A program made the position numbers. A DNA stretch of 64,000 nucleotides from a virus (taxonomy: Duplodnaviria; Heunggongvirae; Uroviricota; Caudoviricetes): the IMG/VR virus record IMGVR_UViG_2877962823_000010, one strand, 5' to 3'. Position 1 is the first letter of the stretch. Each line of letters begins with the position of its first letter. Positions 9,001 to 12,000 of this stretch are shown here, one piece after another.

Positions 9001-12000
9001 TGAGCAGAAGGTGAATCAATGACCTGGCCTGAAGCATTCGCAAATGTAGGAACAGTAATGGCGGTGGTGCTGGTTGTGTATTCGATTTGTCGCTGGAGAT
9101 AAAAACGGTTTGCGGGAAAAGGAGAGTTAAGTAGAATTGCTGCGGGTGCTTGAGGCTATCTGCCTCGGGCATGAACACCAACGGCAGATAGAGAAAAGCC
9201 CCAGTTAACATTACGCGTCCGGCAAGACGCTTAACATTAATCTGAGGCTCAATCCATGCTGAACACATGTAGGTTAGCCTCTTACGTGCCGAAAGGCAAG
9301 GAGAAGCAGGCTATGAAGCAGCAAAAGGCGATGTTAATCGCCCTGATCGTCATCTGTTTAACCGTCATAGTGACGGCACTGGTAACGAGGAAAGACCTCT
9401 GCGAGGTGCGAATCCGAACCGGTCAGACGGAGGTCGCTGTCTTCGTAGACTACGAATCTGAGAAGTAAGAGACCAAGCGGGGGAGTAATCTCCCGCCACC
9501 TCTGATGTGTCAGGCATCCTCAACGCACCCGCGCTTTACCATACTGAAAATGCTGTTTGAATGTTCATCTCTGAAAGAGGACTATGAATGAAAAAGGTAT
9601 TGATTGCAGCACTTATTTCTGGTGTGTCTTTTGGCGCTTTTGCACAGCAGGGCGGTTTCCAAGGGCCTGAAGCAGAGCGTTCAACAGTAGCGCAGGCAAA
9701 AGAACTGAAGGATGATGCATGGGTTATCCTTGAAGGGAGCATCGTTAAAAAAGTGGGTGATGAACGTTATGAGTTTCGTGACAATAGCGGGACAATTGTC
9801 ACGGATATCGATGACAGCATATGGGCCGGTCAGAATGTTTCTCCGAAAGACAAAGTAAGAATTGAGGGTGAAATTGATAAAGACCTGAGCAGTGTTGAAG
9901 TGGATGTAAAGGCACTGAAATTATTAAAGTAACCGTCCCAGCTTGCTAAGCCCGTCTTACTGACGGGTTTTCTGTTTGTTATCACAGTATTTTTCAACAA
10001 AACACCGAATCTTATCCGGTGCGCTGTAAAACCCCGTCCTTCAGGGCGTGGAGGATGTCAAATGGCGTATATTTGGATATAAGAAAGCCATCCAATACTG
10101 GCTGAAAAAACTCCTCATCGATATCATCGTGGGCCTGAATAGTTCCATCCGCAATTCTGATTGCCGGTATTGTTCCCCGGCGATAAGGGGTGAACATCAT
10201 CCCGGTTACATCAGATCGCCTAATAACATATCAAGATTATTTTGCTCATAAATGCTATTCGCCATTACCGTTGCTGCTTCAGCTTAATGAAACGCATAGA
10301 TCCGCCATGCTTTTTCAGCAAATACGCTGCCATTTGCGCAACTTTTTCTTCATTAAACATAAATCGGCTCTCTGTATCACATGAAATGCTCTTCTGACTA
10401 TATGTTAATAGCTCCGGTTATTACAGGTCAATGAGTGTTTATTTCTTAATCAGCCCCGCACTTCCGTACGGGGCCATTTCTGTTAATCCACTCCCACTTT
10501 TTTGTTGTACTCGCGGTTAAACCGATCCACGGCAATTTTCATATCCCGCTCTACCGATTTCACCATCGCCGACTGTTGCGCCAGACTGAGAGTACTGTCG
10601 GCGTAAATGGCATCACGCTGTTTACGCAAATCCTTCAGTCTCTTCCGGGTATCCTGCATAAGCCCGTTCATCGACAATTTTCCGTTGTTCTCGTCAATGA
10701 ACGCCGTTCTTTCTGCACCGGTCAGACTCTTCAGCTCTGCGTGATACTGCGCAATCTCTGTCATCCGGTCGTACATCTTCTGCTGGTCTGCATACGGCAT
10801 CACCTCCCCCGAAATTTTCCCCAGGAAGGGCACCTGCTGTTCCGGTATATCAATACCATTCAGCGATTTCACCGCCGCATCCGTGGTTTTGGAAATGAAG
10901 CGCCCTGTCCCTCCGGAGATATAGTCAATCCAGAATTTCAGCGATTCCGGTGTGATATCCACCGCGCCGGGACGGTACTGGCTGCCACCTGAGAACGCAT
11001 TCAGCCAGGATGCAAACGCCTTGTACGCTTCTGGCGTTGAACGTCTTCCCAGCTGGCTGTCAGGTTTTGGTGTACCAAACGGCATGTTCTCCTGGTAAAT
11101 CTGCGCCCCCATGAAGTTTTCATTCATGGCAAGGTTCGCAAACGGACGCAGAATGGTCGGCGCTGCATTTTTCAGCAATGCCCCGGACAGTGTTTCCGAC
11201 GTCTCACTGCCAATCGGGCTGAATGCACCAAGCACACCACCAACAACATTACCGGCAGCACGGGACGCCGTCAGGTCACCCGCCGCCACACCTTCAGCAG
11301 TATGCCCGAGCAGGAAGAAAACGTTGTACCCGTAAGGCAGAGGAATACTCCAGTACTCTCCGGCCTTGCCCCCGAACACCGATTTCATAATGACGAGGTT
11401 ACGCTCTTTCACATGAGACGGCACCTTGTCATACCAGTTAACCCCGTCATCATCCTCACCCGCCACGCTGCGGTTAAGCGAGCCAAGCAGATAACCTGCT
11501 CCCACAGCGGCAAGCGCGATTTTCTGCGGAACATTCAGATTCTTCCAGCGAAGGCGCTCCAGTAAAGGTCCCTCACCATTAAGATGTCCGAGCGTTCTCA
11601 CCAGATTTGCCGTTCCCTGAATGCTGGCGTTGGCGAACATGTACAGCGAATTCATCAGCGCCCCCTGCTCACCACGACGGTTAAAGTTCACCGTCATGTT
11701 TTTGGCAAGAGACGCCGCCTGCTGGCGTGACAAACCGGCATCACGGGCGTGCTTATAGGCAGAAAGACGCAGAGCGTTTTCAACCGCACCGTTGGCATCC
11801 TCGACAAGGTTAAGGAACGAATTCCATGCACCGATACTCTGGCCTTTCCATCCCCCCTTCGCCAGTGAGACAAGGCGATCCATTTCCTTCTGCTGGCCTT
11901 CAAGGTCACCCATGTTAAACCAGCCGGTTTTCCCTCCGTCCTCAACAAACTCTTTCCACACCTTCTGCCACTGTGCACCTTTTCCCGTGAGGGTTTTACC

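Follow-up and report, generated by a model that had tools for sequence, protein, structure and literature searches.

Does a 27-codon open reading frame (ORF) lying just upstream of a hok-type toxin gene in a prophage encode a protein, and does it belong to the toxin locus? The question is raised by a stretch of 64,000 nucleotides from a virus of the Caudoviricetes (IMG/VR record IMGVR_UViG_2877962823_000010; hereafter the window, to which all positions refer), in which a first-pass annotation made from the sequence alone had pointed to a HokD/RelF-like toxin gene and, before it, to a short hydrophobic frame that might encode a second small membrane peptide. We found that the hok part is the already known, experimentally characterized hokW-mokW-sokW module of the Sp5/933W-type Shiga toxin (Stx) prophage. 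The 27-codon ORF appears, with good support from sequence comparison, to be a real phage microprotein gene that is widely conserved but has hardly ever been annotated. Very probably, the two are independent modules that happen to adjoin: a membrane microprotein gene at 9019–9102 and hokW-mokW-sokW at 9105–9545.

Conservation of the 27-Codon ORF

As the 5 kb around the locus contain 83 ORFs of at least 20 amino acids, a 27-codon ORF is uninformative on its own, and its significance can come from comparative evidence only. A sensitive BLASTN search of 5,426 complete Escherichia coli genomes, with positions 8990–9140 as the query, gave matches in 1,786 genomes at 4,399 places, with identity down to 73% and often in several prophages of the same genome. 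Many alignments covered exactly positions 30–113 of the query (from the ATG to the TAA) or positions 15–113 (with the Shine-Dalgarno [SD] sequence added), and homology to other prophages often begins at position 9004, 15 nt before the ATG. Such exact alignments imply that the 84-bp block, with its own start and stop as limits, is exchanged by recombination as one piece. Divergent copies selected from the BLASTN matches and fetched all had an intact ORF in the same frame (8 of 8), one of them with an in-frame 6-nt deletion.

For an unbiased test of the spacing, IMG/VR was searched with the pattern TGGCCTGANGC-N{45,65}-CGNTGGGG, in which start and stop lie outside the pattern. A spacing of exactly 55 was found in 104 of the 120 matches, and in 102 of these 104 the 27-codon ORF was intact, with ATG or GTG six bases upstream and a stop codon directly after. 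The same pattern was used on the genome collection as a chance background; among the 120 matches listed there, the spacings were evenly distributed and none of the eight with spacing 55 was intact. These latter matches came by chance from unrelated bacteria and are uninformative on the taxonomic range of the family. Conservation in homologous regions, on which the first-pass annotation had made the standing of the frame depend, was thus seen in the IMG/VR set and in the divergent copies alike.

The copies comprised 54 unique DNA versions encoding 33 peptides, the commonest of which was specified by 12 different DNA sequences. The ratio of nonsynonymous to synonymous changes (pN/pS), from pairwise counts without phylogenetic correction, was 0.35 over the full ORF and 0.42 when limited to codons 7–24, which are free of the search pattern; values for the other sense frames ranged from 0.66 to 2.0. 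The stop codon alternates between TAA and TGA among copies. In all 102 loci the start overlaps the stop of the upstream gene (ATGA or GTGA), and the genes before it differ, with no fewer than five unrelated modules at their C-terminal ends (DUF551 "...PPQEVNQ", "...ISVEDILR", "...NIEQEVNR", "...GGHEEGDK", and "...IGVEVK"). A GGAGG sequence was present within −18 to −4 of the start in 55 of 60 distinct contexts.

Using TBLASTN, intact copies with identity down to 54% were detected in VT1-Sakai, BP-4795, YYZ-2008, Stx2a_WGPS2, PhiR12, and the lytic Avunavirus Av-05. The family thus extends over lambdoid phages, a lytic phage, and phage-like plasmids. Plasmids contributed 181 records, mostly non-mobilizable; those listed were mostly about 90–110 kb in size and came from Escherichia and Salmonella. 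Of the E. coli K-12 prophages, Rac and Qin were scanned for a copy already known as a named small protein, and neither contained one. Two decayed copies were seen, one in Shigella phage POCJ13, where TGG is changed to TAG at codon 3, and another with a 1-nt deletion.

Natural variation includes a 25-codon allele in E. coli ETEC1732, which has an in-frame 6-nt deletion and a GTG start. This allele and the POCJ13 null allele (loci L259 and L012, respectively) may be useful as natural controls.

Two variants of the peptide are present in the NCBI nr database as "hypothetical protein" or "bacteriophage protein", and in one genome the Prokaryotic Genome Annotation Pipeline (PGAP) has annotated an N-terminally extended version of 41 amino acids. 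The ORF is unannotated in 933W, in Sakai, and in the RefSeq genome of strain 2013C-3342, whose sequence is identical to the window.

Strand Assignment and the Case against a Gene

A frame on the opposite strand, sharing third codon positions with the small ORF, was open in 89 of 90 contexts and had a pN/pS of 0.36, so that substitution ratios alone cannot fix the strand. The flanking stops of this antisense frame shift with each non-homologous flank, leaving it without conserved limits. We assigned the gene to the sense strand because its start, stop, and SD are fixed while the antisense boundaries vary. In the window, the antisense frame is 249 codons long and has counterparts annotated as coding sequences in two Stx phages (table 1); it is probably a by-product and the calls spurious.

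Besides the antisense ratio, several observations weigh against the reading as a membrane microprotein gene. The small ORF is absent from the small-gene tables of a ribosome profiling (Ribo-seq) study of Sakai (Hücker 2017), which were searched by sequence and by Sakai coordinates in both genome versions, and from the Enterobacteriaceae small-ORF supplement of the preprint "Cryptic Bacterial Microproteome". Its absence from the Ribo-seq tables could be explained by lysogenic growth conditions together with the mapping of reads to multiple copies. Peptide strings of the ORF were not found in the literature. No Pfam or NCBIfam family was found for the 27-residue peptide, and its PHROG matches were weak (4612, E = 0.019; 35838, E = 0.085). 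In addition, the allele of the window has a weaker SD (AAGGTG), and its peptide ends in R, while nearly all others end in G.

An alternative reading is that the 27-codon ORF is no gene at all and that the 84-bp block has been kept as DNA or RNA, either as a recombination "boundary sequence", as the untranslated 3′ region of the upstream operon, or as part of an antisense gene at 8519–9268. The nearly always open antisense frame with its low ratio would fit this reading, as would its annotation in Min27 and Stx2 phage I, the lack of Ribo-seq or proteomic records of the sense ORF in the tables and supplement searched, and the fact that RefSeq (PGAP) makes no sense-ORF call in 2013C-3342 and Sakai. 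However, an open antisense frame with unconserved ends is what would be expected opposite a GC-rich hydrophobic ORF with aligned third positions. The sense ATG/GTG, GGAGG, and stop are fixed, the stop even switching between TAA and TGA; the homology blocks are bounded by the sense start and stop, and the sole indel seen in this comparison is a multiple of three. Replacements are hydrophobic-for-hydrophobic, with an apolar core of 17–19 residues kept, and a pure DNA element should not change three-fold more at silent sites. We therefore regard the non-gene reading as quite unlikely and treat the sense ORF as a gene in what follows.

Two other candidate relationships of the ORF were tried and rejected. 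A natural fusion between DUF551 and the microprotein was suggested by a 229-member cluster that contains the common variant of the peptide and has a 121-residue DUF551 protein as representative; no shared sequence or fusion was found, and the grouping is an artefact of clustering or of partial genes. Frameshifting of the programmed kind, leading into the small ORF, was also considered; no slippery heptamer was read at the GTGAATCAATGA junction, and the upstream genes are too diverse.

Predicted Properties of the Peptide

Members of the family have the signature M-x-W-P-E/D-A...G...Y-S-I-C-R-W-G. Outside the positions fixed by the search pattern, G11 (in 32 of the 33 peptides), A15, A17, Y/F21, S22, I23, and C24 are conserved. 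The hydrophobic character noted in the first-pass annotation was borne out by a mean Kyte–Doolittle hydropathy of 2.07 for residues 6–24; the ATGA overlap of the start with the TGA of the preceding ORF (8627–9022) was likewise confirmed. The only basic residue (R25) is C-terminal and the only acidic residue (E/D5) is N-terminal. Hydropathy and charge placement suggest one membrane helix with an N-out/C-in orientation, and the conserved small residues (G11, A15, and A17) suggest a face suited to helix packing.

In size, single hydrophobic helix, and scarcity of charges, the peptide resembles KdpF, AcrZ, MgtS, and CydX, as well as DinQ, TisB, and ShoB. It has no significant sequence similarity to any of these proteins; a weak, composition-driven match to KdpF (E = 0.024) was below the cutoff. 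Type I toxins have control by an antisense RNA or the 5′ untranslated region, whereas the gene of the 27-residue peptide has neither: no promoter-like site was found on the minus strand over or next to 9019–9102, and Rfam gave no match over this interval. It also differs from the known small proteins in having its own signature and in lying, as an overlapped cistron, at the end of phage Ea22/DUF551 accessory operons. Its upstream contexts are those of a coupled distal cistron and not of a stand-alone transcription unit.

The small ORF would thus be the last cistron of an operon of the Ead/Ea22/DUF551 accessory type. Its translation is probably coupled to that of the upstream gene, considering the ATGA overlap and the position of the SD inside the upstream C-terminus. 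Once made, the peptide might act by binding another membrane protein, as microproteins of the AcrZ, KdpF, and MgtS type do. Since no family was matched, this mode of action is proposed by analogy only. The ORF may represent a translated and functional microprotein family (M-x-W-P-E/D-A-[transmembrane segment]-C-R-W-G) with which lambdoid prophages, phage-like plasmids, and a lytic phage modulate a host inner-membrane protein; superinfection exclusion, transport, and envelope-stress control are examples of roles which it may have.

Neighbors or Partners

To what extent is the small ORF tied to hok? Among 92 copies in IMG/VR, 43 are followed by a hok locus and 49 are not; the latter precede DUF4222, xis, or int genes, terminator-like hairpins, or other genes. 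Conversely, hok loci without the small ORF include locus L007, hokD of K-12, and the plasmid hok. As about half of the copies have no hok downstream, the small ORF is in all probability no part of the hok system.

A functional tie would mean that the peptide acts as another membrane toxin, that it helps HokW or gives immunity to it, or that it is the product of an upstream ORF whose translation controls read-through into hok. The closeness of the two elements could be taken in this sense: the −35 hexamer of hokW starts 8 nt past the stop of the small ORF, hok directly follows the ORF in the 43 copies mentioned, and in nin-region prophages the pair has moved as one block whose homology begins exactly at the ATG of the small ORF. 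Moreover, the type I toxins DinQ, TisB, and ShoB are similar to the peptide in size and hydrophobicity. Set against this are the 49 copies without hok and the many hok loci without the ORF, the lack of an antisense promoter-like site overlapping it, and the published constructs. When mapped onto the window, the deletion made by Takada et al. (2021; PMC8621323) covers 9192–9459, so that the small ORF was left in place, yet the hok phenotypes were abolished. Their pBAD18 insert (9013–9619; PMC8621323) contains the small ORF minus its SD and was harmless while sokW was intact. These mappings and the hok-less copies indicate that the modules are neighbors and not partners, and we consider a role of the peptide within the hok locus highly improbable.

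In several int-xis contexts (E. coli prophages L253–L257; also L008, L010, and L011), a DUF4222 gene (MFALIQRGQIYT...) follows the small ORF. The DUF4222 ATG lies 5 nt past the stop of the small ORF and is succeeded by a hypothetical gene of about 44–48 codons, xis, and int, forming a recurrent series of tightly packed tiny genes.

The hokW-mokW-sokW Module

The product of hokW matched Pfam HOK_GEF (PF01848) with an E-value of 4.3e-23 over the whole model and PHROG 251 with an E-value of 9.8e-33. It is identical to RefSeq-named HokD at 47 of 51 positions (92%), in agreement with the HokD/RelF-type toxin first proposed for this frame. With such scores, a chance match to Hok is out of the question. 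The in-frame extension which had been noticed from 9256 proved to be mokW, with a 70-residue product. Rfam model RF01794 ("sok") matched 9144–9318 on the plus strand over its whole length (113.5 bits, E = 2.2e-26); as the match lies on the strand of the hok mRNA and extends only to the hok AUG, the part covered in the window is the hok leader.

Positions 8600–9600 are 100% identical to 933W, VT2-Sakai (Sp5), Stx2 phage I, and about 40 other Stx phages, and approximately 4.5 kb around the locus are 99.96% identical to Sakai Sp5, while identity to strain 2013C-3342 over this stretch is 100%. The 933W record annotates hokW, mokW, and a misc_RNA sokW on the same bases as in table 1, and in the Sakai annotation the mokW frame is MokC-like (ECs_1245). 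All primers and probes of Takada et al. (2021; PMC8621323) match the window perfectly. Features of the Hok/Sok family present here are a Hok/Gef toxin, an overlapping mok, an antisense sok with its own promoter, and 5′–3′ pairing of the mRNA, which in this family holds the full-length transcript inactive.

The hokW promoter is putative: it was read from the sequence and is not listed by a simple consensus scan. The promoter block AAAACGGTTTGCGGG...GTTAAGTAGAAT is kept in all other hok loci fetched. Folding of the 402-nt RNA from 9144 to 9545 gave a minimum free energy (MFE) of −158.8 kcal/mol (z = −6.9), the two ends being paired with each other, and similarity to other hok loci runs out near 9540. 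The 5′-terminal element (9144–9155) pairs with the fold-back element (9518–9530) in both the MFE and centroid structures; it was invariant across the 44 unique hok leaders fetched, and in nearly all of the hokD/hokW-type loci fetched, about 380 nt separate the fold-back element from the 5′ end. These loci are nearly invariant in the pairing segments, and no covariation could be obtained from them; covariation evidence for the fold-back of the hok family is reportedly found in the literature of the Gerdes laboratory. The hairpin that had been noted after the hok stop is present and belongs to the 3′ fold of the mRNA, where it precedes the fold-back element.

In the predicted fold of the sokW RNA, an unpaired 5′ tail is followed by a long hairpin and a U-tail (z = −4.95); the mokW ATG lies inside the region complementary to this RNA. 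The −10 region of its promoter is part of the sequence replaced in the promoter-less mutagenic primer YO-421 of Takada et al. Alignment to hokD and a check of the regulatory RNA elements, which had been suggested as a test for the hok gene, found the promoters, SD, Sok target, fold-back element, and 3′ hairpin all present. What the first-pass annotation had missed is the identity of the named hokW-mokW-sokW module, the minus-strand sokW, the truncation of the K-12 locus (see below), and the independence of the small ORF from hok.

Table 1. Positions of the Small ORF, the hokW-mokW-sokW Module, and the Overlapping Antisense ORF in the Window
Feature	Position	Strand	Description or basis
Antisense ORF, 249 codons	8519–9268	minus	Coding sequence in Min27 (ORF82) and Stx2 phage I (ORF-38); overlaps the PHROG-1621 gene, the small ORF, and sokW
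SD-like AAGGTG	9008–9013	plus	5 nt before the small ORF ATG, inside the last codons of the upstream gene
27-codon small ORF	9019–9102	plus	Peptide MTWPEAFANVGTVMAVVLVVYSICRWR; predicted single-pass membrane microprotein
Putative hokW mRNA promoter	9110–9137	plus	−35 TTGCGG (9110–9115), 16-nt spacer, −10 TAGAAT (9132–9137); read from sequence
Full-length hokW mRNA (approximate ends)	9144–9545	plus	Leader, mokW/hokW, 3′ hairpin, fold-back element; from RF01794, folding, and homology
5′-terminal element	9144–9155	plus	GGGUGCUUGAGG; pairs with the 3′ fold-back element; counterpart of the tac region of R1 hok mRNA
sokW antisense RNA, 71 nt	9194–9264	minus	Antitoxin; misc_RNA in 933W; complementary to hokW leader and mokW start
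mokW, 70-codon frame	9256–9468	plus	In frame into hokW; 933W annotation; start inside Sok target region
sokW promoter	9271–9299	minus	−35 TTGCCT (9294–9299), 17-nt spacer, −10 TAACCT (9271–9276); read from sequence
hokW SD	9298–9305	plus	AGGAGAAG; read from sequence
hokW, 51-amino acid ORF	9313–9468	plus	Peptide MKQQKAMLIALIVICLTVIVTALVTRKDLCEVRIRTGQTEVAVFVDYESEK
GC-rich hairpin	9477–9497	plus	GCGGGGGAG-TAA-TCTCCCGCC; directly 3′ of the hok stop; part of the 3′ fold/domain of hok mRNA
Fold-back element, fbi-like	9518–9530	plus	CCUCAACGCACCC; complementary to the mRNA 5′ end

The behavior of this module has been described previously (Takada et al. 2021; PMC8621323). HokW is toxic on induction, causes growth arrest, and is located in the inner membrane, and both hokW mRNA and sokW were seen on northern blots. 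Expressed from its own promoter, sokW neutralizes HokW, and mutation of the sokW promoter unmasks HokW toxicity, with a partial contribution of RNase III and Hfq. After mitomycin C treatment, sokW is lost and HokW is then found in the inner membrane, a response that depends on RecA; deletion of hokW-sokW delays growth arrest and halves phage release. Shorter hokW RNA species were also detected and were left without assignment. A preprint on the Pas small RNA merely cites Takada et al.

The module thus works as follows (PMC8621323). A stable, tightly folded hokW mRNA is produced from its own promoter, its 5′ end locked to the 3′ fold-back element, while sokW, from the convergent promoter in the leader, pairs with the leader and mokW start and blocks HokW synthesis. 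When sokW disappears after prophage induction, the 51-residue HokW is translated, inserts into and damages the inner membrane, hastens growth arrest, and approximately doubles phage release. In plasmid R1, translation of hok depends on translation of mok; mok-hok translational coupling and 3′ processing may likewise apply to hokW, by analogy with R1.

Comparison with Known hok Systems

The locus is the same as hokW-sokW of Sp5/933W (Plunkett 1999 annotation; Takada et al. 2021, PMC8621323), and its hok module is no different. With hok/sok of plasmid R1, the prototype type I toxin-antitoxin system, it shares a Hok/Gef toxin, an overlapping mok, a Sok RNA of about 70 nt with a 5′ tail and hairpin, a convergent sok promoter in the leader, and a long-range mRNA 5′–3′ fold-back. 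HokW is 44% identical to R1 Hok (PMC8621323). The two systems differ in that mokW is in frame with hokW, in that RNase III and Hfq contribute only partly for hokW-sokW, and in their roles: hokW resides in a prophage and aids phage release, whereas R1 hok/sok serves plasmid maintenance.

On the other hand, hokD (relF) of the K-12 Qin prophage, whose toxin is 92% identical to HokW, is homologous in its coding region and 3′ part, including the fold-back element, but it lacks the leader, mok start, sok, and sok promoters and is fused behind relBE, directly after relE. Its homology to the window starts only at the hok SD, and a full-length hokD-type locus is found in many other E. coli strains; the K-12 relBE-hokD is a truncated form. 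Profile matches of the neighboring proteins revealed no relB- or relE-like genes flanking hokW, as had been noticed at first pass, the neighbors being Ead/Ea22-DUF551, PHROG-1621, and BOF/YgiW proteins. Because the K-12 homology begins at the hok SD behind relE, the absence of relBE here represents the intact state and is no oddity.

Could hok in the window be an inactive relic like that of K-12? Records of PA-series phages label the hok product "RelF inactive antibacterial toxin protein", and to our knowledge all chromosomal hok loci of K-12 are inactivated. Nevertheless, the window has an intact leader, mok, sok, and fold-back element and an intact pair of promoters, unlike K-12 hokD, which retains the SD onward only. 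Toxin and antitoxin activity have been demonstrated experimentally for the exact sequence (PMC8621323); the relic explanation is thus already refuted, and we give it practically no credence.

Genomic Neighborhood

Upstream of the small ORF and on the same strand, the window encodes a TraR/DksA zinc-finger protein, a DUF4752 protein, an Ead/Ea22-DUF551 protein, and a PHROG-1621 protein (8627–9022); downstream of hokW, a BOF/YgiW protein (9588–9932) follows on the same strand.

The 8627–9022 gene, which overlaps the start of the small ORF, corresponds to 933W L0139 (PHROG 1621, E = 1.7e-59). Its product has an apparent CxxC...CxxC zinc-ribbon-like segment followed by a predicted coiled coil, and its last codons (KVNQ*), which contain the SD of the small ORF, resemble the DUF551 C-terminus (EVNQ*).

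Further upstream, the prophage of the window is unlike 933W. A 265-bp segment (7462–7726) carrying the DUF4752 gene (7458–7742) is extra in the window, Sakai Sp5, and 2013C-3342, and the Ea22/DUF551 gene is split by a 1-nt gap relative to 933W into two ORFs (7705–7947 and 7968–8627), which PGAP calls "frameshifted"; the 933W counterpart is annotated as one 299-residue protein, L0140. Homology to 933W (attR core) stops near 6019, so that about 6 kb of host DNA precede the prophage.

The BOF/YgiW-family OB-fold protein (Pfam E = 5e-33), which comes directly after the hok module, has an apparent N-terminal signal sequence. The first terminator-like hairpin on the plus strand is at 9948–9970, after this gene. 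The gene is moron-like and could be cotranscribed by read-through from hokW. On the minus strand, a 2,806-codon ORF (10483–18903) converges on the hok region; it corresponds to 933W L0134 and Sakai ECs_1242, is named LPD38-domain protein in RefSeq, and encodes a giant phage protein of the polyvalent type.

A Possible Route from Prophage Induction to HokW

Between 6563 and 9932, every gene lies on the plus strand and successive stops and starts overlap or abut; no plus-strand terminator-like site above chance was found between 5800 and 9948, including the sequence before hok. Upstream of an antirepressor-like gene (6563–7192), a promoter-like sequence, TTGACA-18-CATACT, is present at 6315–6344 on the plus strand (10 of 12 matches). 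Transcription of the operon whose last gene is the small ORF could start here.

In 933W, int, xis, and the pL genes have the same strand as the genes from L0142 through hokW at the other end of the prophage. In phage lambda, read-through from pL enters the b region after circularization. Excision and circularization of the prophage would similarly bring the early-left transcript (pL-xis-int) into collinearity with this operon. With such read-through, the small ORF would be translated by coupling, and transcription would run into the sokW promoter from the opposite direction; shutdown of this promoter might then release HokW only in induced cells. The model offers a candidate explanation for the induction-dependent loss of sokW, the trigger of which was left open by Takada et al. 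(PMC8621323). The physiological effect of hokW in the same study is modest, about 2-fold. All in all, we think it rather unlikely that at least one of the specific functional claims, a defined membrane target for the peptide or read-through control of sokW, is right.

Significance

The hok half of the locus adds nothing new, as it is a textbook type I toxin-antitoxin module which has already been dissected in the same phage. The value of the analysis lies in the small ORF, an 84-bp gene that is usually missed by annotation pipelines and has DNA matches in about one-third of the complete E. coli genomes, besides those in Stx phages and phage-like plasmids. Its features are typical of a coding sequence under selection. 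The collinearity argument, for its part, provides a concrete, testable candidate route from prophage induction to HokW. Small membrane proteins are often switches acting on transporters, kinases, or proteases, and a role in host takeover or exclusion in Stx phages is plausible for a phage-borne microprotein that is expressed together with early accessory genes. If the proposed functional family is real, a very common unannotated gene would be added to about one-third of E. coli genomes.

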